From a virus (lineage: Duplodnaviria; Heunggongvirae; Uroviricota; Caudoviricetes), in the IMG/VR virus record IMGVR_UViG_2617271072_000006, positions 1 through 44,740 of that record: DNA of 44,740 nucleotides. One strand, 5' to 3'. Position numbers and translations under genes: made by a program. How positions within the stretch are numbered: position 1 is the stretch's first letter; each line of letters opens with the position of its first letter. This document shows positions 1-38,701 of the stretch, piece by piece. The notes beneath the pieces were generated by a model. It made no database searches, was not told where the DNA came from, and saw only the letters and a program-made list of their open reading frames with translations.

Positions 1-1284
1 TTACTTCTTCGCCTCTGCAACCACTTTACTACCCACGCCGCGGTTATTGTATTCCCACATGCGGTTGTAGTTAGTGTCATTCAGATTGCGCTGTATTTCG
101 TCGTTATCATCTACGCTGCCGGTATTACCCGCAAACGGACGATTAGAGATCACCGCATCGGCCCACGGTTTAGCCGTGTTAAAACCTTCGTTGATGGCGC
201 TATCACGGATCACCACCTGACCGTTGGTATTGGCATCAACATCCAGCGAGCGGCCCAGTTGCGCCACACCATCACCGAAAGCATTGAAACGGCTGTTTAC
301 GGCGAGGAAACCGTAGTAAATGTTGGACAGCGTAGCCGGTGCAAACACATACGCTTCTTGCTGAGTACGTGAGTTCACCACGCGGAATTCGGTGTTATCG
401 AACACCACTGCGCCGCGACCAGAAACGATATCCACATCCCCTTCAATGTAGCTGTTGGTCACCAGCGTACGCGGCTGACGGTTGGTTTCCAGACGGTTCT
501 GCACACCGCTGTTGGTGACAAAGAAGGTGTTCTGACGACCGAGAATGTTAACGTTGTTAATCTGTACCTGGTCACCATCAGTACGCAGTGCCACCGCCGG
601 ATGGTTACCTGCATCTACGCTATCGCCCAGCGTGTTTTCGATGGTCAGATTTTGCAGTTGCAGGCCATTGTTTTGTGACCAGAAGACCGCAGAGCAGAGA
701 ACACCGATACTGTCGCTGCGTTTGCTCTGGCAGCTATCGTACATATACCACGCTGGTTTACCTGGCATATATTTGCCGCGCGGGTTGACGTCGTGACGCC
801 AGTCGGCAGGGCTCATGCCACCATCAAGGGAAAGCCCAATCTTCACATCAATCGGTTTTTCACCTGTACCGTACAGAGTAATTCCACCCGGAGCGGCAGG
901 GACATATACCGTTCCCTGATACTCACCAGGCATCACGGCAATATACTGGCGCTTGTTGGTACGCTTGATAATTGCCGCATCTACCGCCGCCTGAATCGTG
1001 GTATGCGTTACACCTTGAGTGCCCGCCGGGCCGACAACAAAGTCAGGTTGCGCAGGCAGGGTAATCGGGGAAGGATTCCACGCTGCAGCACCTGGTGTCA
1101 GGGATGCAAAATAGTGTTGAGCATCGAAATTCTGCGCTTCTTTTGCCGACAGAATCGGGCGAGAAGAGGTACCAGGCGCGGTTTGATCAGAAGGACGTTG
1201 ATCGGGCGGGGTTGAGCTACAGGCGGTCAGCGTCACGCCAAAAGCCAATGCCAGCGCCAGACGGGAAACTGAAAATGTGTTCAC
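1..1284 (-). CDS. ybhC: YbhC-like pectinesterase-family outer-membrane lipoprotein (host gene flanking lambda attB)
   Basis: Complete 427-aa ORF (stop at window pos 1-3); N-terminal lipoprotein signal with LTAC lipobox; recognised as the E. coli gene immediately left of the lambda attachment site. Confidence 0.85.
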   Translation of the reverse strand: MNTFSVSRLALALAFGVTLTACSSTPPDQRPSDQTAPGTSSRPILSAKEAQNFDAQHYFASLTPGAAAWNPSPITLPAQPDFVVGPAGTQGVTHTTIQAAVDAAIIKRTNKRQYIAVMPGEYQGTVYVPAAPGGITLYGTGEKPIDVKIGLSLDGGMSPADWRHDVNPRGKYMPGKPAWYMYDSCQSKRSDSIGVLCSAVFWSQNNGLQLQNLTIENTLGDSVDAGNHPAVALRTDGDQVQINNVNILGRQNTFFVTNSGVQNRLETNRQPRTLVTNSYIEGDVDIVSGRGAVVFDNTEFRVVNSRTQQEAYVFAPATLSNIYYGFLAVNSRFNAFGDGVAQLGRSLDVDANTNGQVVIRDSAINEGFNTAKPWADAVISNRPFAGNTGSVDDNDEIQRNLNDTNYNRMWEYNNRGVGSKVVAEAKK

Positions 1285-1330
1285 AGGTTGCTCCGGGCTA
1301 TGAAATAGAAAAATGAATCCGTTGAAGCCT

Positions 1331-1345
1331 GCTTTTTTATACTAA
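1331..1345 (+). other. lambda-type attL: 15-bp common core GCTTTTTTATACTAA joining host arm to phage P' arm
   Basis: Exact core sequence; right flank (to ~1420) matches the lambda P' arm as recalled and runs straight into int. Confidence 0.9.
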
Positions 1346-1418
1346 GTTGGCATTATAAAAAAGCATTGCTTATCAATTTGTTGCAACGAACAGGTCACTA
1401 TCAGTCAAAATAAAATCA

Positions 1419-2489
1419 TTATTTGATTTCAATTTTGTCCCACTCCCTGCCTCTGTCATCACGATACTGTGATGCCATGGTGTCCGACTTATGCCCGAGA
1501 AGATGTTGAGCAAACTTATCGCTTATCTGCTTCTCATAGAGTCTTGCAGACAAACTGCGCAACTCGTGAAAGGTAGGCGGATCCCCTTCGAAGGAAAGAC
1601 CTGATGCTTTTCGTGCGCGCATAAAATACCTTGATACTGTGCCGGATGAAAGCGGTTCGCGACGAGTAGATGCAATTATGGTTTCTCCGCCAAGAATCTC
1701 TTTGCATTTATCAAGTGTTTCCTTCATTGATATTCCGAGAGCATCAACATGCAATACTGTTGGGATGGCAATTTTTACGCCTGTTTTGCTTTGCTCGACA
1801 TAAAGATATCCATCTACGATATCAGACCACTTCATTTCGCATAAATCACCAACTCGTTGCCCGGTAACAACAGCCAGTTCCATTGCAAGTCTGAGCCAAC
1901 ATGGTGATGATTCTGCTGCTTGATAAATTTTCAGGTATTCGTCAGCCGTAAGTCTTGATCTCCTTACCTCTGATTTTGCTGCGCGAGTGGCAGCGACAGG
2001 GTTTGTTGTTATATGGCCTTCAGCTATTGCCTCTCGGAATGCATCGCTCAGTGTTGATCTGATTAACTTGGCTGACGCCGCCTTGCCCTCGTCTATGTAT
2101 CCATTGAGCATTGCCGCAATTTCTTTTGTGGTGATGTCTTCAAGTGGAGCATCAGGCAGACCCCTCCTTATTGCTTTAATTTTGCTCATGTAATTTATGA
2201 GTGTCTTCTGCTTGATTCCTCTGCTGGCCAGGATTTTTTCGTAGCGATCAAGCCATGAATGTAACGTAACGGAATTATCACTGTTGATTCTCGCTGTCAG
2301 AGGCTTGTGTTTGTGTCCTGAAAATAACTCAATGTTGGCCTGTATAGCTTCAGTGATTGCGATTCGCCTGTCTCTGCCTAATCCAAACTCTTTACCCGTC
2401 CTTGGGTCCCTGTAGCAGTAATATCCATTGTTTCTTATATAAAGGTTAGGGGGTAAATCCCGGCGCTCATGACTTCGCCTTCTTCCCAT
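1419..2489 (-). CDS. int: Integrase, tyrosine recombinase (lambda Int)
   Basis: 356-aa ORF whose translation matches lambda Int as recalled (MGRRRSHERRDLPPNLYIRNNGYY...); adjacent to attL. Confidence 0.97.
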   Translation of the reverse strand: MGRRRSHERRDLPPNLYIRNNGYYCYRDPRTGKEFGLGRDRRIAITEAIQANIELFSGHKHKPLTARINSDNSVTLHSWLDRYEKILASRGIKQKTLINYMSKIKAIRRGLPDAPLEDITTKEIAAMLNGYIDEGKAASAKLIRSTLSDAFREAIAEGHITTNPVAATRAAKSEVRRSRLTADEYLKIYQAAESSPCWLRLAMELAVVTGQRVGDLCEMKWSDIVDGYLYVEQSKTGVKIAIPTVLHVDALGISMKETLDKCKEILGGETIIASTRREPLSSGTVSRYFMRARKASGLSFEGDPPTFHELRSLSARLYEKQISDKFAQHLLGHKSDTMASQYRDDRGREWDKIEIK

Positions 2490-2685
2490 TTCTGATCCTC
2501 TTCAAAAGGCTACCTGTTACTGGTCGATTTAAGTCAACCTTTACCGCTGATTCGTGGAACAGATACTCTCTTCCATCCTTAACCGGAGGAGGGAATATCC
2601 TGCACTCGCGTACCCATCGACGAACTGTTTCAAGGCTTCTTGGGCGTCGCTGGCGTGCGTTCCACTCCTGAAGTGTCAAGTACAT
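2467..2685 (-). CDS. xis: Excisionase (lambda Xis)
   Basis: 72-aa ORF MYLTLQEWNARQRRPRSLETVRRWVRE..., overlapping int start as in lambda. Confidence 0.95.
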   Translation of the reverse strand: MYLTLQEWNARQRRPRSLETVRRWVRECRIFPPPVKDGREYLFHESAVKVDLNRPVTGSLLKRIRNGKKAKS

Positions 2686-2712
2686 CGCAAAGTCTCCGCA
2701 ATTACACGCAAG

Positions 2713-2732
2713 AAAAAACCGCCATCAGGCGG
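2713..2732 (-). terminator. Rho-independent terminator candidate at 3' end of the small ORF
   Basis: Minus strand reads GCCGCC-TGAT-GGCGG followed by TTTTTT; hairpin overlaps the stop codon. Confidence 0.45.
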
Positions 2733-2892
2733 CTTGGTGTTCTTTCAGTTCTTCAATTCGAATATTGGTTACGTCTGCATGTGCTATCTGCGCCCATATC
2801 ATCCAGTGGTTATAACAGTCGTTGATGTTCTCTGCTTCGATAACCCTGTTGAATGGCTCTCCATTCCATTCACCTGTGACTCGGAAGTGCAT
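2725..2892 (-). CDS. Small hypothetical protein (55 aa) downstream of xis, lambda orf55-like
   Basis: ATG at 2892, TGA at 2725-2727; translation MHFRVTGEWNGEPFNRVIEAENINDCYNHWMIWAQIAHADVTNIRIEELKEHQAA; below the 60-aa cutoff of the ORF track. Confidence 0.55.
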   Translation of the reverse strand: MHFRVTGEWNGEPFNRVIEAENINDCYNHWMIWAQIAHADVTNIRIEELKEHQAA

Positions 2893-2975
2893 TTATCATC
2901 TCCATAAAACAAAACTCGCCGTAGCGAGTTCAGATATAATTTCCACCAAAGGCAGTAGTTGCTTGATGCTAAGAA

Positions 2976-3404
2976 TTATTCAATATCTATTCCTGTAATA
3001 TCTTTTATCTTTTTCCTTGCAAAGCCTTTTGCTAGTGATTTTGAAACACTCATAAGTGTACTAATTCCCTCATCCTTAAAGTTTGTTTTTATAGCTTGCC
3101 AGACATCCTTTTGACGTAAGTCAGCAATAAAATCATGCCCTCTTGCTGTCAACCTCAGTGGTACTTCGATCCAACTATATCCAACACCTTCCCCTAACGC
3201 TTTGGACAATATATGACCGAACCCAGGTTTTCCATCAACCCTGACTATTAATTCGTAGTCACATAATAATCGCATATGGAAAATAAAATCTTGGTCATAT
3301 CTATTAAAGCCATTATCCTCTAGTTCACTAAGCATCGTGTCAGGGCCACGAGTTTTTTCGAATGCGATAAGTAGATCTTTTAGATATTGCTGGTCTAATT
3401 TCAT
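2976..3404 (-). CDS. Hypothetical protein, possibly DUF2513-like winged-helix protein
   Basis: 142-aa ORF with GGAGG Shine-Dalgarno 5 nt upstream of ATG 3404; family assignment is a weak recollection only. Confidence 0.5.
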   Translation of the reverse strand: MKLDQQYLKDLLIAFEKTRGPDTMLSELEDNGFNRYDQDFIFHMRLLCDYELIVRVDGKPGFGHILSKALGEGVGYSWIEVPLRLTARGHDFIADLRQKDVWQAIKTNFKDEGISTLMSVSKSLAKGFARKKIKDITGIDIE

Positions 3405-3432
3405 TGCCGCCTCCGTGACATGTCACAGAGAT

Positions 3433-3771
3433 TTATATCATTAATTTTGTTTCGTGCCAGCCTTTGGTCACCCAGCATTGTGAGTCACCATTACACGGGC
3501 ATGAATTAACAGGAACTCTCTCGCCGCACTTACCGCACCGTTTTCTGCTGATCGATTTTATACGCCAGCGCACACGTGCATCATCCTGGCGGCTCAGTAA
3601 CGCGATGTACTCACCAAACTCGCAAGGCGCACGCCTGAAGCGACGCGTGGCACAGTTACGCTCCAGCATTTCAATTTCCTGAGCATCAAGTACAAGCTCC
3701 AGCTTACGCATACCGGATGATGCTTGCTTGGCTCTCTGATCGGCTTTGTGCTCTGTTGCTGATTTAGCCAT
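3433..3771 (-). CDS. Hypothetical protein with C-terminal Cys-rich zinc-finger-like motif
   Basis: 112-aa ORF; CGKCGERVPVNSCPCNGDSQC cluster; AGGAAAAG upstream of ATG 3771; occupies the lambda ea8.5 position. Confidence 0.5.
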   Translation of the reverse strand: MAKSATEHKADQRAKQASSGMRKLELVLDAQEIEMLERNCATRRFRRAPCEFGEYIALLSRQDDARVRWRIKSISRKRCGKCGERVPVNSCPCNGDSQCWVTKGWHETKLMI

Positions 3772-3964
3772 TCTGCTTTTCCTGCATCAGGAGAAAGACA
3801 ATCATGGCGGCGCGGATACTTCCGGTATCTTTTTACGCGATATTCCCCTTCAATGGCACATACAAGAAGAGAGCCATCAACAGGAGTGATTGAGGAATCG
3901 ACAACCAGCAACGCTTAATTATCTATAGTGTCGTATTTGCTTCATAAAATATGGCGAATAACAC

Positions 3965-3996
3965 AAAGCCCGCAGCAGCTCATTGTGCGGGCTTTT
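3965..3996 (+). terminator. Stem-loop with T-rich tail (terminator candidate) in intergenic region
   Basis: AGCCCGCA ... TGCGGGCT stem, 11-nt loop, followed by TTTTCTTAT on the plus strand. Confidence 0.35.
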
Positions 3997-4064
3997 CTTA
4001 TACCTACTTCCTAGAGATAATTCTATGGAGGCATTAAATCAATACTGTCATTGGTAATATCATA

Positions 4065-4678
4065 TTATCTAAAAGTCTTTCCACTTTTAACATCTAGGTA
4101 TATTCTGTTCGACAACGTCATTCCTCCGCAATATGTGAAATAGATGTTTTCACCCTTATTGCTTGATGCCATCCACCCTCCGATTTCCTTAAAATCGCTT
4201 TCCGTGCAGACCCCTTCATTTATTAACTTCCTAGCTGCCGAAGAAAACTCTTTTTTGTATATACGGTAGTCATCAGATCCTTTGATTAAAGTATCATCTC
4301 CGCTCGCATTTTCAGCAGGATCTGATGGCCTTTCACTGCTAAGATCACTAAGTTTAACCCATTCTGAAAACTTGCCATTAACGATTCCATTTTTTCTTGT
4401 GCAGGATTTATTACCTTCTTTAATATATTCGCTTTCCCCTCCAACACATGAGGCTGAATATGGCTCAGTTATACGAACCCATTCACCTTTTTTTCTAGAA
4501 AATCTACGCCTTCCCTGAAAAATAGTTTCCCAGCCACTCCACATTTACTTGAAGGGCAGGTATGTCTTTCCGTTCGATCAACAACAACCCATAGTTTTGA
4601 TTCATTTTTTGCCATTGCCGATGGTATTTGAGATGAGACAATTAACGTAAGCCCTAAAATTAGTATTGATTTTTTCAT
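4065..4678 (-). CDS. Secreted protein with Sec signal peptide and possible SH3b-like region; frameshifted as assembled
   Basis: ORFs 4469-4678 (signal peptide MKKSILILGLTLIVSSQIPSAMA) and 4065-4544 join into one ~205-aa protein if the T7 run at 4488-4494 were T8. Confidence 0.5.
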
Positions 4679-4976
4679 TGTAATTTCCTTTTACTTTTTA
4701 CAAAGCGTTTAATCATGGCTGATTATCTCTAAGTGTAGTAACAGCCTTGTGCGAAACATGTTACCAAATCGCCATTTCAGTGTATCCGCAGTTAGGCTGC
4801 CACTTCAAGGATTCCTAATTACATGGTACGTAAGCGTAAAATCCCGTTGGTTGGCGGGTAATAACTCTGATCAAATCTCCCTTGTCTTTTGCTCTTACGT
4901 ATGCAGCTCTTGTGTATTCAACCCAGGCCTCCAGTTCAGCAATACGCTTACTTCCATCCGAGATAACACCTTCTAC

Positions 4977-5201
4977 TCACGCTGCTCGTTGAGTTTTGAT
5001 TTTTGCTGTCTCCAGCTCAACACGCAGTTTCCCCACCGTTAGCGCAATATCCTCGTTCTCCTGGTCGCGGCGTTTGATGTATTGCTGGTTTCTTTCCCGT
5101 TCATCCAGCAGTGTCAGCACAATCGATGGTGTTACCAGCTCATGGAAAAAGGTCCGCGTCAAATCCCCAGTTGTCAGGCATTGCCTGCTCTGCCGCTTCA
5201 C
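4977..5201 (-). CDS. Hypothetical coiled-coil-like ORF; doubtful as a stand-alone gene
   Basis: 74-aa ORF with GTG start and no clear RBS; same frame continues with protein-like sequence for 53 codons after an in-frame TGA at 4977-4979. Confidence 0.3.
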   Translation of the reverse strand: MKRQSRQCLTTGDLTRTFFHELVTPSIVLTLLDERERNQQYIKRRDQENEDIALTVGKLRVELETAKIKTQRAA

Positions 5202-5225
5202 GCAGTGCCTGAGAGTGAATTACGC

Positions 5226-5447
5226 TCACTTCGAACCTCTCTGTTTACTGATAAGCTCCAGATCTTCCTGGCAACTTGCACAAGTCCGACAACCCTGAAC
5301 GGCCAGGCGTCTTAGCTCATCTATGGGATCGCCACACTCACAACAATGAGTGGCAGATACAGCCTGGTGGTTCAGGCGGCGCATTTTTATTGCTGTGTTG
5401 CGCTGTAATTCTTCAATTTCTGATGCTGAATCAATGATGTCTGCCAT
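5226..5447 (-). CDS. TraR/DksA-family C4 zinc-finger protein (lambda orf73-like)
   Basis: 73-aa ORF with CCECGDPI...CRTCASCQ four-Cys motif typical of TraR/DksA C-terminal zinc fingers. Confidence 0.7.
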   Translation of the reverse strand: MADIIDSASEIEELQRNTAIKMRRLNHQAVSATHCCECGDPIDELRRLAVQGCRTCASCQEDLELISKQRGSK

Positions 5448-5838
5448 CTTCCATTAATCCCTGAATTGTTGGTTAATACGCTTGGGGGTAAATGCGAGCA
5501 ATAAAAAAGGAGCCTGTAGCTCCCTGATAATTTTGCTTTTCATGTTCATCGTTCCTTAAAGACGCCGTTTAACATGCCGATTGCCAGGCTTAAATGAGTC
5601 GGTGTGAATCCCATCAGCGTTACCGTTTCGCGGTGCTTCTTCAGTACGCTACGGCAAATGTCATCGACGTTTTTATCCGGAAACTGCTGTCTGGCTTTTT
5701 TGATTTCAGAATTAGCCTGACGGGCAATGCTGCGAAGGGCGTTTTTCTTGCTGAGGTGTCATTGAACAAGCCCCATGTCGGCAAGCATAAGCACACAGAA
5801 TATGAAGCCCGCTGCCAGAAAAATGCATTCAGTGGTTG

Positions 5839-6030
5839 TCATACCTGGTCTCTCTCATCTGCTTCTGCTTTCGCCACCATCATTTCCAGCTTTTGTGAAA
5901 GGGATGCGGCTAACGTATGAAATTCTTCGTCTGTTTCTACTGGTATTGGCACAAACCTGACTCCAATTTGAGCGAGGCTATGTGCCATCTCGATACACGT
6001 TCTTAACTCAACAGGAGATGCTTTGTGCAT
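5839..6030 (-). CDS. Hypothetical protein, lambda orf63-like
   Basis: 63-aa [26 protein letters not shown]... in the position and overlap pattern of lambda orf63 upstream of exo. Confidence 0.75.
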   Translation of the reverse strand: MHKASPVELRTCIEMAHSLAQIGVRFVPIPVETDEEFHTLAASLSQKLEMMVAKAEADERDQV

Positions 6031-6191
6031 ACAGCCCCCCGTTTATTATTTATCTCCTCAGCCAGCCGCTGTGCTTTCAGGGGATTTCTGATAACAGAAA
6101 GGCCGGGAAATACCCAGCCTCGCTTTGTAACGGAGTAGACGAAAGTGATCGCACCTACCCGGATATTATCGTGAGGATGCTTCATCGCCAT
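6003..6191 (-). CDS. Hypothetical protein, lambda orf60a-like
   Basis: 62-aa [29 protein letters not shown]..., overlapping exo start as in lambda. Confidence 0.75.
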
Positions 6192-6862
6192 TGCTCCCCA
6201 AATACAAAACCAATTTCAGCCAGTGCCTCGTCCATTTTTTCGATGAACTCCGGCACCATCTCGTCAAAACTCGCCATGTACTTTTCATCCCGCTCAACCA
6301 CGACATAATGCAGGCCTTCACGCTTCATACGCGGGTCATAGTTGGCAAAGTACCAGGCATCTTTTCGCGTCACCCACATGCTGTACTGCACCTGGGCCAT
6401 GTAAGCCGACTTTATGGCCTCGAAACCACCGAGCCGGAACTTCATGAAATCCCGGGAGGTAAACGGGCATTTCAGCTCAAGGCCATTGCCGTCACTGCAT
6501 AAACCATCGGGAGAGCAGGCGGTGCGCATACTTTCGTCGCGATAGATGATCGGGGATTCAGTAACATTCACGCCGGAAGTGAATTCAAACAGAGTTCTGG
6601 CGTCGTTCTCGTACTGTTTTCCCCATGCCAGCGCCTTAGCATTAACTTCCGGAGCCACACCGGTGCAAACCTCAGCCAGCAGGGTGTGGAAGTAGGACAT
6701 TTTCATGTCAGGCCACTTTTTTCCGGAGCGGGGTTTTGCTATCACATTGTGAACTTCTGAAGCGGTGATGACGCCGAGCCGTAATTTGTGCCACGCATCA
6801 TCCCCCTGTTCGACAGCTCTCACGTCGATTCCGGTACGCTGCAGGATAATGTCCGGTGTCAT
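6182..6862 (-). CDS. exo: Exonuclease (Red alpha)
   Basis: 226-aa ORF matching lambda Exo as recalled ([37 protein letters not shown]...). Confidence 0.97.
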
Positions 6863-7644
6863 GCAGCCACCTTCTGCTCAGTGGCTTTCTGTTTCAGGAA
6901 TCCAAGAGCTTTCACTGCTTCGGCCTGTGTCAGTTCTGACGATGCGCGAATGTCGCGGCGAAATATCTGGGAACAGAGCGGCAATAAGTCGTCATCCCAT
7001 GTTTTATCCAGGGCAATCAGCAGAGTGTTAATCTCCTGCATGGTTTCATCGTTAACCGGAGTGATGTCGCGTTCCGGCTGACGTTCTGCAGTGTATGCGG
7101 TATTTTCGACAATGCGCTCGGCTTCATCCTTGTCATAGATACCAGCAAATCCGAAGGCGAGACGGGCACACTGAATCATGGCTTTATGCCGTAACATCCG
7201 TTTGGGATGCGACTGCCACGGCCCCGTGATTTCTCTGCCTTCGCGGGTTTTGAATGGTTCGCGTCGGCATTCATCCATCCACTCGGTAACGCAGATCGGA
7301 TGATTACGGTCCTTGCGGTAAATCCGGCATGTACAGGATTCATTGTCCTGCTCAAAGTCCATGCCATCAAACTGCTGGTTTTCATTGATGATGCGGGACC
7401 AGCCATCAACGCCCACCACCGGAACGATGCCGTTCTGCTTATCAGGGAAGGCGTAAATTTCTTTCGTCCACGGATTAAGGCCGTATTGGTTGGCGACGAT
7501 CAGCAATGCGATGAACTGCGCATCGCTGGCATCGCCTTTAAATGCTGTCTGGCGAAGAGTGGTGATCAGTTCCTGTGGGTCGACAGAATCCATGCCGACA
7601 CGTTCAGCCAGCTTCCCAGCCAGCGTTGCGAGTGCTGTACTCAT
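6859..7644 (-). CDS. bet: Single-strand annealing protein Bet (Red beta)
   Basis: 261-aa ORF matching lambda Bet as recalled ([37 protein letters not shown]...). Confidence 0.97.
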
Positions 7645-7649
7645 CCGTT

Positions 7650-7946
7650 TTATACCTCTGAATCAATATCAACCTGGTGGTGAGCAATGGTTTCAACCAT
7701 GTACCGGATGTGTTCTGCCATGCGCTCCTGAAACTCAACATCGTCATCAAACGCACGGGTAATGGCTTTTTTGCTGGCCCCGTGACGTTGCAAATGATCG
7801 ATGCAGAGTGATTCAAACAGGTGCTGGGGCAGACCTTTTTCCATGTCGTCTGCCAGTTCTGCCTCTTTCTCTTCACGGGCGATCTGCTGGTAGTGACGCG
7901 CCCAGCTCTGAGCCTCAAGACGATCCTGAATGTAATAAGCGTTCAT
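7650..7946 (-). CDS. gam: Gam, RecBCD inhibitor (98-aa GamS form)
   Basis: 98-aa [63 protein letters not shown]... Confidence 0.95.
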
Positions 7947-8021
7947 GGCTGAACTCCTGAAAATGGCTGTGAAAATATCGCCCGCGAAATGCCAGGCTGA
8001 TTAGGAAAACAGGAAAGGGGA

Positions 8022-8432
8022 TTAGTGATTCAGGCCGTTACCGCGTCCGTCGAGAAAAACTTCCACGAGCAAATCACGGGTATAAGTGCGCTCGATGCCG
8101 CGATGCAGATATAGCCGTCCGCGTAAATTAGCTGATGCAGTCCAGGTACCATCTTTGTGTTTGACCAGCATTCCTGGCATGACCGCACCTCGATTAACGG
8201 TCTGCGTTCCGTAATGTTGATGAACCATAAAAACTCCTGCCCGTAAGCTGGGCTGCTGAACATATAGAGACTTCTGCGCGTATTCAGGCGGTGGATGGCC
8301 GCCGGTTGTCATAACTAAGTCGCCTCGTTGAAGCGACTGAGGTATGAAGTGTTGAGTTGATTTCAGCTGGTCACACCGACGTTCACGCGTCCGCTTCACC
8401 CCTCGCACTCCCCGGAGCCTGCTGAAATTCAA
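8022..8432 (-). CDS. Hypothetical early-left protein in the kil/cIII position
   Basis: 136-aa ORF (possible internal start giving ~96 aa); no motif recognised; lambda-like sequence resumes at its 3' end. Confidence 0.4.
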
Positions 8433-8496
8433 GCTGCGGATCTAAGCGGTCATCGCAACGGTGAAGTTATAAATTTTTGTGATACCAACATCGATG

Positions 8497-8545
8497 CAAT
8501 AGCATGACAATAGCAATAGCTATTGGTGTAGTCAATAGCAATTAG
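8497..8545. promoter_or_regulatory. Cluster of CAATAGC / GCTATTG repeats including 12-bp palindrome CAATAGCTATTG: candidate left operator (OL) and pL region
   Basis: At least four copies of CAATAGC within 50 bp upstream of the early-left operon; the same TGCTATTG motif recurs between the repressor and cro-like genes. Confidence 0.4.
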
Positions 8546-8785
8546 TATTGATAATGTTTGATATACTTGTTCTGATTGATAATTAAATGAATTTTTATAA
8601 AAAAGAGTATGAAGACTTATTGGTGTGGCTGAAATTTGTACAGCTTTAATGTGCCTCGTGACAGAGGGGCATCGGGTTGTGGTGAGCTCGGTAGGTTGGC
8701 AGCAAATTTAATCGAATATTGGTAGTCTGAGTTCTTATGTGTATTTTTTTAGTCAGTTGCTAAATGATACATAAATGACTTATTA

Positions 8786-8810
8786 GCCCCGCCATCGCTT
8801 TGTACGGGGC
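8786..8810. terminator. Stem-loop immediately downstream of the SIR2-like gene stop
   Basis: GCCCCGCC ... ACGGGGC hairpin; T-rich tail only on the plus strand, so strand of action is uncertain. Confidence 0.35.
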
Positions 8811-8816
8811 GTTTAT

Positions 8817-10419
8817 TTAATTTATCTTTTCAACATTTCCATGAATCAACAAGTCGTAGGCAAGAAATAGTTTCCTATACTGGGTTTTTAAATTGTCAAC
8901 GTCGCATGCCTTGAATTGAACAAACGCTTCTTTTTTAACATAATCTTCAATCTCCTCTTTGGGGATATTTTTTATGTTCTTAATGACTATAGACAATTCT
9001 TTGTACTTTTTGAACTTTGCATCCTTTATATCTTTGATGTTGGTGTAAATTTTATTTGCATTGATTTTATCTAAGGTGATTTTATTGAGCAAGTCGTCTA
9101 GTTTTCCGTGGCGTTCAATGCGTTGATTTAGTTTTAACACATATTTAGCTGGCAAACTTAACTCTTTCAAATTACATGAGGTTATAGTTTTTGAAAATGG
9201 AAGTTGTAATGAGTTTACTGAACCTAATATGAAATCTATGGCTAATTTATTAGATATTTCATTTTTATTAAATAAGTAGTCTTCAAGATAATTTATTTCT
9301 TTAACTTGTGTGAATACATACTTTTTATCGCCTAGAGCAACAACTAAATTTTTTCCTTGTTTAACACTTTCTTCAAGTCTGTCTAAGTCAGAAGGTGAAA
9401 CCAATAGAGTATCTAAGTGCCCTTTTTCACCCTCATTAATGATAAGTGTTTTAATGGCTCTTTGATACCTTAAAACATCATAAGGTGAGAGCCCTTCATC
9501 AACAGCACTGATCTCATCATAGATCTGTTTATAGTTATCTGTTTTAACAGATGTATATGTAATTTGTAGCTGTTGATCGGTAATCTGTTTTGGTACTACT
9601 TCCTGTTCATTCTCTTTATATTCAATCAAAATTATTCTTTCAGCTGATTTTCGACCATCTTCTCTAGGTAGTTGTGAGGAAAAATCAGAAAGAAGTTTCT
9701 TTACATTCCTGTCAGTTAAAGAATATCCAAGAAAAACTATTGGATTTTTAATCATGTTAGATAGTATCTTGGCACTAATGAGTATAGATTTGTTGTCATA
9801 TTTTTCGTAATCATCTTTATTTATGATTATTGAGTGTGGATCCTTTATATCACCATGTATTTTGTATAACTCACTCCAGCCAATAGTATCTTCGAAAAAA
9901 CCATTATTTCCAATATAGAGTTTTGGAGTTATATTTTGCTCTTGAAGTAAATTTTCTATGAAAGCATCATAATTTGTAGTGATGATTATCTTGGCCTTTT
10001 TTATTAATGTTTTAAATGATGCTAATTCATCAAGATTTACATCCTTTCTGATTGTGTTATTAGAAAATCTTTGGCATATGGCGTATTTAAATGGTGAAAT
10101 ATCTTCACTAAAAACCCTCTTGGCATCTAGTCCATTTAATTTTAATTTGCCAGTCCTAAACAATAGATTGTAATCATTTTCAATTTTACTTGCTGCCTCT
10201 GTATAAATCTTATGATCGATATCATTATCACTGTTATTTTTATGTGATTCTTTTATTGTTAAAAGATAACTATAGAAATCATTTGTGGGATTTGTTATTT
10301 TCCAATACTCGTTTAATAGCTCTTCCCACGTTGGGTAGTTCTCTAAATATATTTTTGAAATGCCTGAGCCAATAAAGACTATTGGGTAATTTTTGAATTC
10401 AAAATTTTTTTTTTGACAT
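8817..10419 (-). CDS. SIR2-like (SIR2_2/ThsA-type NADase domain) protein with uncharacterised C-terminal region; N-terminus frameshifted as assembled
   Basis: ORF 8817-10163 carries IIITTNYD, YKIHG and VFLGYSLTD motifs; the same frame upstream encodes the FIGSGIS glycine loop but has no start codon; ATG at 10419 with RBS is out of frame by one base across a T10 run (10405-10414). Confidence 0.7.
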
Positions 10420-10531
10420 ATCCATATACCTTAAGCTCTGCTTGAAACATCCATTCTATAAATTATGAGGATGTCAGCATGTCTCACCAAAACATCATCT
10501 GGTTATCTTGATGAAATCTGTCATTAATAAT

Positions 10532-11223
10532 CTACCCATGTTTTCTATATGTCTGTGGCATGCTCCCAATAACTTTCCCAAATATAAATACCCGATTCAT
10601 TTCGTCTTTTTCGATCGGGTCCCACGGTGAGTAGCTCTTGTTATCAGAGATAACCAGCAGCTTATCCTTCATCATTTGCAGGCGCTTTACATGGGCTGTG
10701 TCGTCGTACAGAAACGCATAGATACCATCACCGTCGAAAGATTTAACAGTGATATCAACGAACAGAAGATCACCTGGTTCGATCGTTCCTGACATGCTGT
10801 CACCGCGTACGTTAATGATGCGGATATTTTCTGCCTTCCTGCCATCGAACATGTGACGAGCATCGTCAAACGAGTACTCAACCGAGCGTAGGACTTCTAC
10901 AAACTCACGGTTGATGACACCCGGCCCAGCACTGACTTCTATATCAAGAACGTCAATTTTGAAGTATTTGGAATGGTTGACAGCAGGCTTCCCTGATTGT
11001 TGACCGTCATTTCTCATCGGGCCTATGCCTGATGAGAGCCACTCTGTTCGAACACCCAATGCATTAGCTATTTCAACAATTTTGTTGAGCCGCGTGCGTT
11101 GCCGCTTGTCAGTCTCCAGATTGTGGGTTGAGCTACGCCAGACGCCTTTGCAAGAGCGCCTTGAGACATTCCAGATTGTTCCATCGCTAGGTTTAAGCGA
11201 TCAGCAAGAGTTTCTTTTTTCAT
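10532..11223 (-). CDS. cI-like prophage repressor (N-terminal HTH + C-terminal S24 LexA-type peptidase domain); frameshifted as assembled
   Basis: HTH ORF 11068-11259 (QGALAKASGVAQPTIWRL) and peptidase ORF 10532-11059 (GDSMSGTIEPGDLLFVD...VKRL...K) join if the T4 run at 11080-11083 were T5; likely ATG at 11223. Confidence 0.8.
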
Positions 11224-11235
11224 AAGTTTTAATTT

Positions 11236-11300
11236 ATACGCTTGCGTATTGATGGTCAAAACACGTTTTGCTATTGATTGGATTAATACGCATTGCTATT
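11236..11300. promoter_or_regulatory. Right operator/promoter region between repressor and cro-like gene
   Basis: Perfect palindrome ATACGCTTGCGTAT (11236-11249), imperfect copy (11285-11300) and TGCTATTG motifs; TATAAA -10-like element 8 nt upstream of the repressor ATG, consistent with a leaderless pRM-like transcript. Confidence 0.5.
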
Positions 11301-11333
11301 ATCCATTCATTGTAATACCAATAGGAATTGATA

Positions 11334-11561
11334 ATGACAAATCAAACCATTCAACTCGCAATCAGTATTACAGGTAGTCAAAAACGACTGGCAGATCTAT
11401 GCGGTGTAGCCCAGCCCACTGTTTGGCGTTGGCTACACGGTGGCGGAATTGATGCCCGCTATGTAATGAAAATTGTCTCAGCCACTGGTGGAAAGATTAA
11501 ACCAGCAGATATTCGTCCCGACCTTGCACCATTGTTTAACGCGAGTAATTCTGCCGCCTAA
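11334..11561 (+). CDS. Cro-like / YdaS-like HTH regulator
   Basis: 75-aa product from ATG 11334 (AGGA 7 nt upstream) with HTH LADLCGVAQPTVWRW; divergent from the repressor. Confidence 0.75.
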   Translation: MTNQTIQLAISITGSQKRLADLCGVAQPTVWRWLHGGGIDARYVMKIVSATGGKIKPADIRPDLAPLFNASNSAA

Positions 11562-11585
11562 ACTGCGGCGTTAACTGATAAGGCA

Positions 11586-12131
11586 ATGACTATGCAACCA
11601 CTTACATACCAACAGACTAGCGGATTTAGCCCGACTGCGGTGATAAATCGTTCTCAAATAAAACAGGTGCCAGGCCACGAAAAAATCCGTGATGCCGTTC
11701 GCGCGTGGTCGGCTGCAGATAATCAGGATGTTGTTGCCGCACTCATTGTGAATGAGTATCGGGAGCAGGGCGGCGGCACCATCGATTTCCCTGATGATGT
11801 CAGCCGTGCACGCCAGAAGCTGTTCCGCTTCCTCGATAACAAATTCGATTCTGAAAAATACCGAAATAACGTGCGTGAACTGACCCCGGCAATTCTGGCG
11901 GTACTACCGCTGGAATATCGCGGCCACCTGGTTGAGCAGGATAGCTTCATGGCTCGGCTGGCTGAAATGGAAAAGGAACTCTGTGAGGCAAAGCAGGCGG
12001 TCATTCTCAACGCACCACGCCACCAGAAACTGAAGGAAATGAGTGAAGGTATTGTGTCGATGTTTCGTGTGGACCCGGATCTGGCTGGTCCATTAATGGC
12101 GATGGTTACCACCATGCTGGGGGCAATATGA
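11586..12131 (+). CDS. YdaT-like regulatory protein (CII-position)
   Basis: 181-aa ORF; NEYREQGGG...LTPAILAVLPLEYRGHL resembles Rac YdaT as recalled; follows the cro-like gene as in Rac ydaS-ydaT. Confidence 0.6.
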   Translation: MTMQPLTYQQTSGFSPTAVINRSQIKQVPGHEKIRDAVRAWSAADNQDVVAALIVNEYREQGGGTIDFPDDVSRARQKLFRFLDNKFDSEKYRNNVRELTPAILAVLPLEYRGHLVEQDSFMARLAEMEKELCEAKQAVILNAPRHQKLKEMSEGIVSMFRVDPDLAGPLMAMVTTMLGAI

Positions 12132-12217
12132 CAGGTTCAGAAATGGCGAAAGCCGGTCTGCGGGAACAGAGCCGACTTTCAGGTGCAAATCGTAACGCAC
12201 TCATTGCGGAAGGAATT

Positions 12218-13147
12218 ATGGCAAACACTGCTGAGATATTCAATTTTCCAGTGCCGGATGAGGCACAAAAGGAGCCGCGCGTGGCAGATCTCGATGATGG
12301 TTATACGCGCATTGCAAATGAGTTGCTGGAAGCTGTGATGCTGGCCGGATTAACACAGCACCAGCTTCTGGTCTTCCTGGCTGTCATGCGCAAAACATAT
12401 GGCTTTAATAAAAAACTGGATTGGGTGAGCAACGAGCAACTGTCCGAATTGACCGGGATATTGCCGCACAAGTGTTCTGCTGCAAAAAGTGTTCTGGTAA
12501 AGCGTGGGATTTTGATTCAGAGCGGGCGGAATATCGGTATTAATAATGTGGTCAGTGAATGGGCAACATTACCCGAATCAGGTAAGAAAAATAAAGTTTA
12601 CCTGAAAGAGGTAAATTTACCTGAATCAGGTAAGAAAAGTTTACCCAAATCAGGTAAAGGCGTTTACCCGAATCAGGTAAACACAAAAGACAAACTAACA
12701 AAAGACAATATAAAACCTTTTTCGTCCGAGAATTCTGGCGAATCCTCTGACCAACCAGAAAACGATCTTCCTGTGGTGAAACCAGATGCTGCAATTCAGA
12801 GCGGCAGCAAATGGGGGACAGCAGAAGACCTGACCGCCGCAGAGTGGATGTTTGACATGGTGAAGACCATCGCGCCCTCAGCCAGAAAACCGAATTTTGC
12901 AGGGTGGGCTAACGATATCCGCCTGATGCGTGAACGTGATGGACGTAACCACCGCGACATGTGCGTGCTGTTCCGCTGGGCATGCCAGGACAACTTCTGG
13001 TCCGGTAACGTGCTGAGTCCGGCCAAACTCCGCGACAAGTGGACCCAGCTCGAAATCAACCGAAACAAGCAACAGGCTGGCGTGACAGCCGGCAAACCAA
13101 AACTCGACCTGACGAACACTGACTGGATTTACGGGGTGGATTTATGA
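12218..13147 (+). CDS. O: Replication initiator O-like protein (lambda-type C-terminus, divergent N-terminal iteron-binding domain)
   Basis: Start ATG 12218 preceded by AGGAA; N-terminus parallels lambda O (VADLDDGY...LRKTYG), ori iterons embedded in the coding sequence, stop overlaps the P start. Confidence 0.85.
   Translation: MANTAEIFNFPVPDEAQKEPRVADLDDGYTRIANELLEAVMLAGLTQHQLLVFLAVMRKTYGFNKKLDWVSNEQLSELTGILPHKCSAAKSVLVKRGILIQSGRNIGINNVVSEWATLPESGKKNKVYLKEVNLPESGKKSLPKSGKGVYPNQVNTKDKLTKDNIKPFSSENSGESSDQPENDLPVVKPDAAIQSGSKWGTAEDLTAAEWMFDMVKTIAPSARKPNFAGWANDIRLMRERDGRNHRDMCVLFRWACQDNFWSGNVLSPAKLRDKWTQLEINRNKQQAGVTAGKPKLDLTNTDWIYGVDL
12569..12680 (+). repeat. ori iterons: five 17-bp direct repeats TTACCYRAATCAGGTAA (one degenerate) followed by an A-rich tract, inside the O gene
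   Basis: Repeats at 12569, 12598 (variant), 12617, 12641, 12664, then A-rich 12681-12720; same architecture as ori-lambda. Confidence 0.8.
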
Positions 13148-13845
13148 AAAACATCGCCGCACAGATGGTTAACTTTGACCGTGAGCAGATGCGCCGGATC
13201 GCCAACAATATGCCGGAACAGTACGACGAAAAGCCGCAGGTACAGCAGGTAGCGCAGATCATCAATGGTGTGTTCAGCCAGTTACTGGCAACTTTCCCTG
13301 CGAGCCTGGCTAACCGGGATCAGAACGAACTGAACGAAATCCGCCGCCAGTGGGTTCTGGCTTTCCGGGAAAACGGGATCACCACAATGGAACAGGTTAA
13401 CGCAGGAATGCGCGTAGCCCGTCGGCAGAATCGACCATTCCTGCCATCACCCGGGCAGTTTGTTGCCTGGTGCCGGGAAGAAACATCCGTTACCGCTGGG
13501 CTGCCAAACGCCAGCGAGCTGGTTGATATGGTTTACGAGTATTGCCGGAAGCGTGGCCTGTATCCGGACGCAGAGTCTTATCCATGGAAATCAAACGCGC
13601 ACTACTGGTTGGTTACCAACCTGTACCAGAACATGCGGGCCAATGCGCTGACTGACGCGGAATTACGGCGTAAAGCTGCCGATGAGCTGACCTGTATGAC
13701 CGCGCGAATTAACCGTGGTGAGGCGATACCTGAACCAGTAAAACAACTTCCTGTCATGGGCGGTAGACCTCTAAATCGTGCACAGGCTCTGGCGAAGATC
13801 GCAGAAATCAAAGCTAAGTTCGGACTGAAAGGAGCAAGTGTATAA
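13144..13845 (+). CDS. P: Replication protein P (DnaB helicase loader)
   Basis: 233-aa ORF matching lambda P over its length as recalled (MKNIAAQMVNFDREQMRRIANNMPEQYDEKPQVQQVAQIINGVF...). Confidence 0.95.
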   Translation: MKNIAAQMVNFDREQMRRIANNMPEQYDEKPQVQQVAQIINGVFSQLLATFPASLANRDQNELNEIRRQWVLAFRENGITTMEQVNAGMRVARRQNRPFLPSPGQFVAWCREETSVTAGLPNASELVDMVYEYCRKRGLYPDAESYPWKSNAHYWLVTNLYQNMRANALTDAELRRKAADELTCMTARINRGEAIPEPVKQLPVMGGRPLNRAQALAKIAEIKAKFGLKGASV

Positions 13846-13944
13846 CGGGCAAAGAGGCAATTATTCATTATGAGTAACTTTCTAAATTTTTTTGAGCCAG
13901 ATTAGTGGTCTTGGATTCAGTTTACGTCTCAGATACTGAGAAGA

Positions 13945-14049: not shown

Positions 14050-15069
14050 ATGTGTTACAGTAATGTTACAGATCGTGATCTTATGGGGCAAATTGCTACT
14101 AAACTAAATGACTATCGAAACCCTCCTCAAGGTGGCATGAGCATTGATCATGTTAATCGATGGATTAATCAATTTGAGTTAACTGATAGGCGATTTGTCT
14201 TAGAGGAAACGGACCGATTAATGGGGATTGGATACTTTTCTGAGAACGACTATCGCAGGGTTATTAGTAGTATCGCCACTGATGAGCAAAATGAAAGTTT
14301 CTTTCAAACTGCAGCGTTTCTCGATATTCAGAACCAAGGTACCAGTCAATCTGAGTTTTTGGATTTACTTCGAGAAGATTGTGTAGAAGAATTCAACGTT
14401 GTGACCAGACTTTCACAACGTCAAAGAGTTAGTTCATTCCGTGAATTTATTTACGTTGACGATGTTTTATTCTCCGGAGCTAAGGCAATCAATGATTTAA
14501 TTTGGTTTATTGAGCACTTTAAACTCCAAAATATTACAATATTGGTGTACTTTTTAGGTGGGCACACATATTCAACATGGAAGATAAAAGACCAACTTGA
14601 ACGAAGATTTGCGGGCAGAAATATTTCAGTTGGCGTTGGTGGAGGTGAGTTTGTATTTGTTGAAAATAAACTCCGAAATAGTTCGAATTCGGAGGTTTTA
14701 TGGCCAAAAGCGCAAAGTGTATCAATACCTGAATGGGCTGACGGTCAAATACATTATTTAGGAACATATCGAAACGGTTACGTCGCGAATAAAATTTTTC
14801 CTGATGAGCAGAGACGTGATCGTTTTGAAACTATTCTGACAAAAGTTGGGTTTGATATCCTTGGTCATAGTCAAAATCCCTCTGCTGTCATAAAGCCCTT
14901 AGGCTTTTCAACTTTCAATGGTGTTGGGTTTGGCGGAACTATCTTTACTTTCAGAAACTGCCCAAATAATACCCCTCTCGCGTACTGGTGGGGAACTTAT
15001 CTTCGAACAGGAAATAGAGCTCTGGATTGCTGGTATCCACTTATGAAGCGTAATGTGTATAATCGGTGA
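14050..15069 (+). CDS. Phosphoribosyltransferase-fold (type I PRTase-like) protein, function unknown
   Basis: 339-aa ORF in an AT-rich island; residues 133-147 FIYVDDVLFSGAKAI fit the PRPP-binding signature of type I PRTases; AGGA RBS; stop lies 3 nt before the NADAR ATG. Confidence 0.5.
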   Translation: MCYSNVTDRDLMGQIATKLNDYRNPPQGGMSIDHVNRWINQFELTDRRFVLEETDRLMGIGYFSENDYRRVISSIATDEQNESFFQTAAFLDIQNQGTSQSEFLDLLREDCVEEFNVVTRLSQRQRVSSFREFIYVDDVLFSGAKAINDLIWFIEHFKLQNITILVYFLGGHTYSTWKIKDQLERRFAGRNISVGVGGGEFVFVENKLRNSSNSEVLWPKAQSVSIPEWADGQIHYLGTYRNGYVANKIFPDEQRRDRFETILTKVGFDILGHSQNPSAVIKPLGFSTFNGVGFGGTIFTFRNCPNNTPLAYWWGTYLRTGNRALDCWYPLMKRNVYNR

Positions 15070-15071
15070 TC

Positions 15072-15682
15072 ATGAGCTATAGACTATACCTGTTTCACAA
15101 CACAGTTTCTTTCAGGAAAACCACCGAGAAATGGGGTGGTCTTTCCAACATGGCCAAAGGATATCCGCTCTTCGTTAATGGTATACCCATTCAATCGAGT
15201 GAAATTCTTTACCAAGCATGCCGATATCCAGACTATCCAGATATCCAAAGGGTTATTATTACCCAAGCCAACCCTTACGAAGCTAAACAAACCGCCAGAA
15301 CCTTCGAGGCCAAAACCCGTACTGGTTGGGAAAAAATCGAGTTTCGGTAATGAAATGGTGTGTCTGCGTTAAGCTTTGCCAGAACTGGGAATCGTTCTTC
15401 GCGCTATTGGATAGCACAGGAGATCATGACATTGTTGAGCACTCAGAGAAGGACCAATTTTGGGGGGCTAGTAAGGACTCCGAAGGTAACTTTTATGGCA
15501 TGAACGTGTTAGGTCGTATCCTTATGGATGCGAGAGATATTGCAAGAAAGAAGGGGCCTGCAGGGTTTGCTACGATACCGCCGCTACCCTTGGATAGGTT
15601 TCTTCTGCTCGGGGAGCAAATACGTGATGTCACTTTCTCTCCACCACCGATGGATTCAGGGCAAAGCTTATCGCTTTTTTAA
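15072..15682 (+). CDS. NADAR (YbiA-like N-glycosidase) domain protein; frameshifted as assembled
   Basis: ORFs 15066-15350 and 15326-15682 together align to YbiA as recalled (LSNMAKGYP...SSEILYQACRY, then WEK..VMKW...IVEHSEKDQFWGA...GMNVLGRILMDAR); frames join if the A6 run at 15331-15336 were A7. Confidence 0.75.
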
Positions 15683-21285: not shown

Positions 21286-21636
21286 ATGCCACCACGCACA
21301 CCAAAGGCTTGCAGAGCAAGAGGCTGCCGCAACACGACAACCGATTCATCAGGCTACTGCGAGCTACACAAAAGCGAAGGCTGGAAGCAATACAAGCCAG
21401 GTCAGTCCCGTCATCAGCGCGGTTATGGTTCGAAGTGGGATGTTATCCGCGTGCGTGTGCTGAAGCGTGACAAAGGCCTGTGTCAGTTATGTCTGCGTGC
21501 TGGTGTGGTGCGTGAGGCGAAAACCGTTGACCACATCATCGCTAAAGCGCATGGCGGCACTGATGCCGACTGCAATCTGCAGAGTTTGTGCTGGCCGTGT
21601 CATAAGGCGAAGACGGCCCGTGAACGGCTGAAGTAA
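21286..21636 (+). CDS. HNH endonuclease (packaging-associated)
   Basis: 116-aa ORF with Cys/His-rich HNH motifs (CQLCLRAG...VDHIIAKAHGGTDADCNLQSLCWPCHKAK), directly upstream of the terminase genes. Confidence 0.85.
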   Translation: MPPRTPKACRARGCRNTTTDSSGYCELHKSEGWKQYKPGQSRHQRGYGSKWDVIRVRVLKRDKGLCQLCLRAGVVREAKTVDHIIAKAHGGTDADCNLQSLCWPCHKAKTARERLK

Positions 21637-21662
21637 GAACCAGTTCCCACTGCCAGAGGGGA

Positions 21663-21723
21663 GGGGCGGGTCAAATCCCTGTGACCTGACGTCTTCCGGA
21701 CTGCCCGCCCCATCCGTTTTTTT
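21663..21723 (+). terminator. Large GC-rich inverted repeat followed by T7 tract between HNH and terS (terminator or cos-proximal structure)
   Basis: GGGGCGGG (21663-21670) pairs with CCCGCCCC (21704-21711); TTTTTTT at 21717-21723. Confidence 0.4.
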
Positions 21724-21762
21724 ATACCCGCGAAAAATGAAATTTAACCAGGAGTGCCACAT

Positions 21763-22257
21763 ATGGCTGGAACGGCGGGGCGTTCCGGGCGTCGCCCCAA
21801 GCCAACGGCGCGCAAGGCGCTGGCCGGAAACCCCGGCAAGCGAGCCCTGAACAAAGATGAACCTGTTTTTACGCCCATCAAAGGTGTTGAGCCACCGGAG
21901 TGGTTCGCTGAAGAAGATCTCCCTCTCGCCACGATCATGTGGCAACTGACAACCAAAGAACTCTGCGGTCAGGGCCTGCTGTGCGTGACTGACTTGGCGG
22001 TACTTGAGCGGTGGTGCGTGGCCTACGAGTTCTGGCGACGTGCCGTGAAAAATATTGCCAGACAGGGCAACACCATCACCGGTGCAATGGGTGGCATGGT
22101 CAAAAATCCGGAGCTGACCGCCAAGAAAGAACAGGAGTCCGAGATGAGCAGCACGGGGGCAATGCTCGGACTCGACCCCAGCAGCCGCCAGCGTCTGATT
22201 GGCCTGGCGGGGCAGAAGAAAGCCACTAACCCGTTTCTGAAAATCATCGAATCATGA
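21763..22257 (+). CDS. Terminase small subunit
   Basis: ORF 21754-22257 (likely ATG 21763 after AGGAG), positioned between HNH and the large terminase subunit with ATGA overlap. Confidence 0.8.
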
Positions 22258-23986: not shown

Positions 23987-23997
23987 CTGAGGTAATT

Positions 23998-24180
23998 ATG
24001 ATCATGCTGATTCTCGCGCCTCTGGTGGGCGTGCTGGGGGCGCTTTTGCTGGCGTATGGTGCCTGGCTGATTTATCCCCCGGCGGGGTTTGTTGTTGCCG
24101 GGGCGTTGTGCCTGTTCTGGTCGTGGCTGGTGGCGCGATATCTCGACCGTACACAGTCGTCTGTCGGCGGAGGTAAATAG
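23998..24180 (+). CDS. Small hydrophobic membrane protein
   Basis: 60-aa ORF, two predicted transmembrane helices, between terminase and portal. Confidence 0.5.
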
Positions 24181-25421: not shown

Positions 25422-26050
25422 TGTACCGCTGAGTCTGAAATCTGTCAGTGACTCCGGTGAGTTTGAAGGGTATGGCTCCGTCTTTGGTGTAAAGGACAGC
25501 CACGATGATGTGGTGATGTCCGGGGCATTTGCTGCTTCCCTGCGGGCGTGGAGTGACAGAAAAGCGTTACCTGCGCTGCTCTGGCAGCACCGCATGGATG
25601 AACCCATCGGTGTTTACACCGAAATGAAGGAAGACGATGTCGGGCTTTACGTCAGGGGACGGTTGCTTATTGATGATGATCCCCTCGCAAAAACGCGCAC
25701 ATGCACACATGAAGGCCGGTTCGTTAACCGGCCTTTCTATTGGGTACGTCCTGAAAGACTGGGAATACGACCGGAGCAAAGAAGCCTTTCTGCTGAAAGA
25801 AATCGACCTCTGGGAAGTCAGCCTGGTGACGTTCCCGTCTAACGACGAGGCGCGGATCAGCGACGTCAAGAACGCACTGGCCCGCGGGGAAATCCCCGAA
25901 CAGAAAAAAATCGAAAGAGTCCTGCGTGATGTCGGACTCTCCCGTACCCAGGCCAAAGCATTCATGGCCGGGGGCTATGGCGCACTGTCCCTGCGCGACG
26001 CTGAGGATGTGGGCTCTGCACTGAATGCACTGAAAAATCTGAACTTCTAA
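25399..26050 (+). CDS. Prohead protease (HK97 family); frameshifted as assembled
   Basis: ORFs 25363-25842 and 25637-26050 are two frames of one protease; frames differ by one base around the C4/A5 runs at 25681-25693; start may be 25363 or ATG 25399. Confidence 0.75.
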
Positions 26051-26064
26051 TCAGGAGAAATACG

Positions 26065-27267: not shown

Positions 27268-27315
27268 TCACTCAGGGGCGCGGAACCGCGCCCCTGTTCT
27301 GACGGGTGAAGAATC

Positions 27316-27516: not shown

Positions 27517-27518
27517 GT

Positions 27519-31636: not shown

Positions 31637-31720
31637 ACCCCCTTGAACTTCGCCGGACGGCTATTTCTCACTTTGCTGATCTGGAGGCAGAGGCCGTCCG
31701 TATAAATGAGGAGATGAAGC

Positions 31721-38698: not shown

Positions 38699-38701
38699 TC
38701 C

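Follow-up and report, generated by a model that had tools for sequence, protein, structure and literature searches.

The split immunity repressor gene of an Escherichia coli ISC7 prophage is very probably a homopolymer under-call

Is the immunity repressor gene of a prophage in Escherichia coli ISC7 truly broken, or does the deposited sequence misrepresent an intact gene? The question is posed by a stretch of 44,740 nucleotides (the window), which corresponds to positions 64415–109154, up to the contig end, of CBWN010000010.1 (109,154 bp) in the draft assembly GCA_000529855.1 of this strain; the overlap is 100% identical. The window begins at the end of ybhC and continues with an integrase gene, which indicates a prophage located on the chromosome at the side of the lambda attachment site. 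A sequence-only reading of this DNA had described a cI-like repressor in which a helix-turn-helix (HTH) ORF stops 8 bp before an S24 peptidase ORF resumes in another frame. That reading allowed for two outcomes: a real break, leaving the lysogen with a DNA-binding fragment, or an artefact, leaving the immunity region intact.

The sequence and the list of ORFs between 10300 and 11700 confirm this arrangement of stop, 8-bp spacing and change of frame. The repressor gene lies on the minus strand and starts at an ATG (11223–11221). Codons 1–48 end with ACA AAA and are followed by the out-of-frame codons TTG TTG AAA (L-L-K) and a TAG stop (11070–11068). The 5′ fragment that begins at ATG 11223 encodes MKKETLADRLNLAMEQSGMSQGALAKASGVAQPTIWRLTSGNARGSTK ahead of a tract of four adenines (A4). 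The S24 ORF is listed at 10532–11059 from its first TTG, and the gap of 8 nt separates the stop from that TTG. The split gene comprises:

11068..11223, minus strand: 5′ repressor fragment; codons 1–48 plus L-L-K and TAG, covering helices 1–3 of a 434-type HTH
11080..11083, minus strand: A4 homopolymer (T4 on the plus strand; contig positions 75,494–75,497), formed by the final base of the T47 codon together with codon K48; site of an apparent 1-nt deletion, with A5 in relatives
10532..11079, minus strand: 3′ repressor part in the shifted frame; codons 49–230 plus stop, covering HTH helices 4–5, the linker, the candidate Ala99-Gly100 site and the S24 domain

Insertion of one A into the A4 tract produces a continuous protein of 230 amino acids that is 100% identical to WP_000712399.1. 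Because this single-base repair yields a known protein exactly, the two ORFs represent one gene and not a chance juxtaposition. The sequence-only reading had proposed the same repair, and its repaired protein sequence was correct. Two of its details require revision. The HTH start at 11259 is merely the first TTG of the ORF, and annotated relatives all start at ATG 11223. The break was placed between the two domains; it actually falls inside the HTH, after residue 48 of a domain that spans residues 13–63. A single frame that runs across both domains is absent from the deposited window and present in all of the approximately 840 relatives examined except one contig with six adenines.

WP_000712399.1 is annotated as an XRE family transcriptional regulator of 230 amino acids in E. 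coli GE3, in O157 strain 644-PT8 and in many other strains, and the exact sequence is found on more than 1000 contigs in the protein collection. Pfam assigns HTH_3 to residues 13–63 of the repaired protein (28.3 bits against a cut-off of 23) and Peptidase_S24 to residues 96–219 (67.2 bits, E=1.3e-18). The S24 active-site motifs contain Ser143 (GDSM) as the nucleophile and Lys180 (HVKRL) as the general base, and the linker holds a candidate cleavage site at Ala99-Gly100 (SAGPG). Residues 8–67 align with residues 4–63 of the DNA-binding domain of the 434 cI repressor (E about 1e-5), while the C-terminal domain aligns with UmuD/UmuD′ of the LexA/UmuD S24 family (E about 1e-4). The resemblance to the latter family extends to the candidate Ala-Gly site and to the Ser/Lys pair, which is separated by 37 residues. 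The protein differs from 434 repressor in its low sequence identity and in its predicted operators, which have the half-site ATACGC here. Both Pfam and the alignments thus bear out the earlier identification of a cI-like repressor with HTH and S24 peptidase domains.

Genes that encode WP_000712399.1 contain A5 at codons 47–48 in place of the A4 of the window, and for this reason the window reads as two ORFs. Their neighborhood matches that of the window: a divergent YdaS-type cro gene, a YdaT-like gene, O and P lie on one side, and variable cargo, kil, gam and bet on the other. Homologues that share 95–97% of their DNA sequence bear the annotation cI in the isolated temperate phages 4A7, D2, 1W, 3W, Perceval and PhiR30_1/PhiR68_2/PhiR70_1. 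Judged by its sequence, the repaired gene is a common, already annotated cI-type repressor of E. coli lambdoid prophages.

A shorter protein of 161 amino acids, which begins at the internal Met70, matches the C-terminal part encoded in the window exactly and is named S24 family peptidase or repressor CI, is recorded on approximately 700 contigs. We considered whether these S24-only records represent widespread split alleles and rejected the idea: all ten loci read (L005–L014) contain A5 and an intact frame of 230 amino acids. According to the ten loci inspected, the 161-residue records are start-codon miscalls that lack the HTH domain.

The DNA between the repressor gene and its divergent neighbor has the layout expected of a cI-type immunity region, namely a cro-like gene in the opposite orientation and repeated operator-like sites in between:

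11232..11300: operator region between the repressor and cro-like genes; three related sites of ~17–19 nt, ~25 nt apart
11232–11250 (palindrome ATACGCTTGCGTAT), 11259–11275 and 11284–11300: operator-like sites; repeat families D1, D2 and I2
11259 to 11231, minus strand: PRM-like promoter site; consensus match that overlaps operator-like sites
11274 to 11302, plus strand: PR-like promoter site; consensus match that overlaps operator-like sites
11334..11561, plus strand: cro-like gene, an intact ORF for a YdaS-family HTH protein of 75 amino acids; WP_000184665.1 in L001, PF15943 in relatives

The promoter consensus matches do not exceed the number expected in shuffled sequence, and their PRM-like and PR-like assignments follow from position. 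The cro-like gene is succeeded by a YdaT-like gene and then by O and P. A scan of the whole window against Rfam gave no match. In the complete O157 genome of 644-PT8 (NZ_CP015831.1), the YdaS-type cro gene beside an intact repressor has lost 5 nt (GGGCT) and bears a frameshift annotation.

In the favored explanation, the gene at 10532–11223 on the minus strand encodes the usual immunity repressor of such an element, a lambdoid prophage integrated beside ybhC, on the attB-lambda side, in E. coli ISC7. The product is a protein of 230 amino acids that combines a 434-type HTH with a LexA/UmuD-type S24 autopeptidase domain. From what is known of these families, it would bind the three operators between its own gene and the divergent cro-like gene, and it would be inactivated through RecA-stimulated self-cleavage at Ala99-Gly100 by Ser143 and Lys180.

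The distribution of the A4 allele bears directly on whether the break exists in the living strain. The segment of 63 nt around the site is present in 708 complete E. coli genomes; 0 of them have the exact version of the window, and all matches listed span one extra base. We then read the length of the A run in 119 IMG/VR contigs located with a flanking pattern derived from the window: 118 contain A5, one contains A6, and none contains A4. The full gene is readable in 114 of these contigs and encodes 230 amino acids in every one. Ten other assemblies uniformly contain A5, and the tally for 135 other loci stands at 134 with A5, one with A6 and none with A4. No exact copy of a 33-mer specific for A4 was found in the collections of viral, species-representative genome and metagenome contigs. 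At the protein level, the truncated repressor products are absent from a collection of 15 billion proteins, and five candidate broken products of the window are not present as such in the protein collection. The A4 allele is private to this assembly, and many independent genomes agree on the other length.

The sole other run-length variant, A6, belongs to IMGVR_UViG_2917891409_000001, in which three homopolymer-type indels occur within 3.1 kb. This contig departs from the others at further places besides the A6 run: an A4 run shortly before the start codon has become A5, and GG in the O gene reads G. The contig probably comes from a further error-prone assembly.

Comparison of the window with three near-identical relatives revealed that the repressor site is one of many small length differences:

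1–6296, compared with L139: 6 substitutions, 3 indel events
7498–13870, compared with L001: 7 substitutions, 3 indel events
21502–40747, compared with L003: 9 substitutions, 10 indel events

In total, 22 substitutions (15 of them transitions) and 16 indel events were counted over 31.9 kb at 99.8–99.9% identity. Thirteen of the 16 indels fall in runs of at least 3 nt, and their frequency climbs with run length: ~7 among ~45 runs of at least 6 nt, 5 among ~430 runs of 4–5 nt, and 4 among ~23,000 shorter runs. Most are changes of ±1 in homopolymers, and one is a −2 event. Three more indels (13887, 15331 and 16080) are found relative to a 98.6% identical relative. Beside the repressor site, the assembly contains ~17 further private indels; those outside the structural genes listed below are located at 5146, 5742, 8474, 10405, 13887, 15331, 16080 and 21714. 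Of 18 private indels, 15 affect coding sequence, with no depletion relative to coding density.

Private indels split five essential structural genes (window 22254–33628), although E. coli isolate 602 (NZ_OW968111.1) contains an intact prophage with 99.9% identical DNA:

22384: private indel that splits the terminase large subunit gene
25689: private indel that splits the prohead protease gene
26410, 26484 and 26516: three private indels that split the major capsid protein gene
29511: private indel that splits the tail sheath gene
32852, 33062 and 33102: three private indels that split the tape measure gene

The changes at 26410 and 26484 are single-base deletions outside long runs. Indels also break a SIR2-family gene, a NADAR-family gene (A7-to-A6 at 15331) and small early genes, all of which are intact in relatives. 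A tape-measure fragment and a 47-amino-acid Ead fragment are each unique to the window. We examined the possibility that the clustered changes in the capsid gene (−1, −1, −1) and the tape measure gene (+1, −2, +1) compensate one another. This was rejected, since stops occur within the shifted segments and both genes remain split; moreover, the terminase, protease and sheath genes each contain an uncompensated shift.

Host DNA of the same assembly is affected as well. In the 5.0 kb of chromosome just upstream of the window on the same contig, a private T6-to-T7 change splits ybhI into ORFs of 271 and 216 amino acids (position 18721 of L153, from CBWN010000010.1, ~3.6 kb upstream of the window start). 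The gene encodes 477 amino acids in eight of eight other genomes compared. This host-side sample is small: 6.3 kb of host sequence with one indel, in a non-essential gene.

High-throughput data are known to produce spurious length variation in single-nucleotide repeats (PMC4746626), and the assembly displays what such an artefact would leave behind. The repressor variant is private to one assembly. It is accompanied by many ±1 differences that rise with run length and are comparable in number to the substitutions, and the conserved chromosomal gene ybhI is also hit, within the limits of the small host sample. The pattern resembles homopolymer miscalls of the flow-based or long-read kind in being ±1, dependent on run length, private, shared by prophage and chromosome, and without coding depletion. 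On these sequence comparisons, the repressor break is very probably a homopolymer under-call in the sequencing or assembly of the draft genome, in which one A of A5 was lost, and not a biological event. The ~17 other private indels of the contig, mostly ±1 in homopolymer runs, would have arisen in the same way. The living strain would most probably have an intact repressor gene and a functional immunity region. A point against this interpretation is that approximately one indel every 2.2 kb is a lot of consensus error for an assembly that was deposited. Literature searches for the accession, assembly and strain name gave no account of the sequencing platform used for ISC7.

Not every length difference in the window can be attributed to error. 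At ~4487, the window has A7 and other sequences have A8, and the shorter run splits a hypothetical gene of 183 amino acids into two minus-strand ORFs of 69 (4469–4678) and 159 (4065–4544) amino acids. The split form recurs across numerous independent assemblies (129 and 30 index blocks), and the proteins encoded by ybhC, the 159-residue ORF and the 69-residue ORF are common to many assemblies. The A7/A8 difference is a real polymorphism and was not counted as an error. It departs from what pure homopolymer miscalling would produce, and because it is shared by many assemblies, the indels of the window call for caution site by site.

The polymorphism at 4487 also lends some weight to a second explanation, in which A4 is a genuine mutation. 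The prophage would be decaying or defective, or its host would be a mismatch-repair mutator that accumulated many slipped-strand frameshifts, one of which inactivated the repressor. Homopolymer runs are indeed hotspots of real slippage as well as of miscalling, and the run-length difference at 4487 is a true polymorphism in many assemblies. The predominance of transitions among the substitutions would be expected of a mutator, although also of ordinary variation. In addition, if the late genes were truly broken, loss of repression would yield no phage.

Several observations argue against a genuine mutation. Even if all substitutions are charged to this lineage, the ratio of indels to substitutions is ~0.7, far above that of natural divergence; in mutation-accumulation lines deficient in mismatch repair, the ratio is lower than this value. 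Eighteen private frameshift-type changes stand against merely ~0.07% substitutions. The chromosomal gene ybhI is hit too, the deletions at 26410 and 26484 fall outside long runs, and no second genome contains the A4 allele. Physiology provides a further objection. With cro, O, P and kil intact, a null repressor should kill the host or leave the prophage unstable. We infer that a repressor truncated inside its HTH could not sustain stable lysogeny in this setting. The prophage was nevertheless integrated when it was sequenced, and this discrepancy favors the artefact. Taken together, we consider a genuine mutation improbable. The fuller scenario that it entails is quite improbable: a prophage at attB-lambda with its repressor cut within the HTH, with cro, O, P and kil intact, with lysogeny held by other means, and with the remaining frameshifts produced by a burst of slippage. 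If A4 were true, lysogeny would have to be maintained by other means, for example by a second homoimmune prophage, by low-level slippage or by added crippling mutations.

The sequence-only reading had gone further and suggested that a real break would leave the lysogen with a DNA-binding fragment devoid of the cleavage and dimerisation domain, a non-inducible and dominant-negative-like repressor. In this scenario, the fragment would be a stable HTH-only protein, by analogy with the N-terminal domain of lambda cI. When overproduced, the N-terminal domains of lambda and 434 repressors do bind operators on their own, and the 5′ ORF does retain helices 1–3, which include the helix-turn-helix proper. 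The proposal depends, however, on the A4 call being real, and the product would consist of 48 repressor residues followed by three foreign ones. HTH_3 scores 22.6 bits in the deposited 51-residue ORF, below the cut-off of 23, and only model positions 4–32 of 55 are covered. The alignment to residues 4–63 of 434 repressor implies that helices 4 and 5 of the five-helix domain are missing; the break after K48 falls at what we take to be the start of helix 4 in the 434 architecture. A folded 51-residue product that binds operators is unlikely with so incomplete a DNA-binding domain, and the break, if real, would most likely constitute a null allele and not a dominant-negative fragment. This branch of the earlier reading is not supported, given that A4 is found in no other sequence examined, that ~17 further private indels accompany it and that the HTH is incomplete; we regard a functional HTH-only repressor as highly improbable. 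The same reading's other branch, an artefact with an intact immunity region, is the one favored by the private A4 allele and the homopolymer indels across the assembly.

A last explanation for the split holds that the frameshift is programmed, with the ribosome or the RNA polymerase slipping on the A run, or phase-variable, with reversible switching of the run length, and that it sets the amount of full-length repressor. The position of the run would allow a tRNA-Lys in the P site to re-pair in the −1 frame, and a long tract of A8, A9 or A10 in the neighboring SIR2 gene varies among genomes. To our knowledge, however, efficient slippage or phase variation needs a longer run than A4 or A5. The site also lacks an X XXY YYZ heptamer, as the A-site codon is TTG. 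A contingency locus or a programmed frameshift would be expected to combine a long tract or a slippery motif with a shifted layout or variable length that relatives conserve; the run here measures 4–5 nt, A5 is present in 134 of 135 other loci, and the window version is shared by 0 of 708 complete genomes. The shifted layout is not conserved, in that the approximately 840 relatives are in frame with A5, and the lone other variant (A6) resides in error-prone sequence. Regulated frameshifting thus appears extremely improbable, and even when it is pooled with the HTH-only repressor, the two together remain very improbable.

With an under-call as the preferred interpretation, the split repressor most likely does not represent a new feature, and an ordinary immunity region is to be expected. 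Were the break real, it would be a null allele of a single strain and of modest interest. The broader implication concerns the draft assembly, which contains approximately one private indel per 2 kb, mostly homopolymer-length changes. Any split gene, pseudogene or frameshift in the window, including those in the SIR2 gene and the five structural genes, is best regarded as an artefact unless sequencing reads show otherwise.

The SIR2 gene itself lies downstream of the repressor gene, in the place that rexAB occupies in lambda:

8817..10419, minus strand: SIR2-family gene of the PADLOC candidate defence family PDC-S25; frameshifted, with A10 at 10405–10414

Its intact form of 533 amino acids matches PDC-S25 with E=6e-235. 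The poly-A tract spans codons 2–5. Its length is A10 in the window, whereas 14 other loci, which include the closest relatives, have A9 and four have A8. A9 is in frame with the proximal ATG, which gives the 533-residue protein; with A8, the frame joins an ATG farther upstream (MFQAELKVYGYVKKNFEF..., a call of 543 amino acids in L012). A10 leaves the gene without a usable start, so that it would be off. The tract may be truly variable in length among strains; the A10 of the window is probably another miscall.

The slot between the repressor gene and kil, equivalent to ~8500–10500 of the window, is a site of variable cargo (L005–L014, L138, L144 and L145). Beside an identical repressor, it holds SIR2 (PDC-S25), HipA_2 with DUF3037, an MqsA-antitoxin-like gene with two unknown genes, or other unknown genes. 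Farther along the plus strand, at ~14050–15680 and after the replication gene P, the window contains a PRTase-CE-like phosphoribosyltransferase gene followed by the NADAR-family gene; in one relative, the PRTase-like gene bears the annotation of an anti-phage protein.

The last 4 kb of the window (40732–44740), which also form the contig end, are an inverted copy of the baseplate gene block at ~35000–39010, 2–6 kb farther upstream, and are 97.8% identical to it. The junction lies at a pin-type invertible tail-fibre segment. The inverted copy is consistent with a second related prophage, with recombination at invertase sites, or with an assembly mis-join or fold-back across the repeat.
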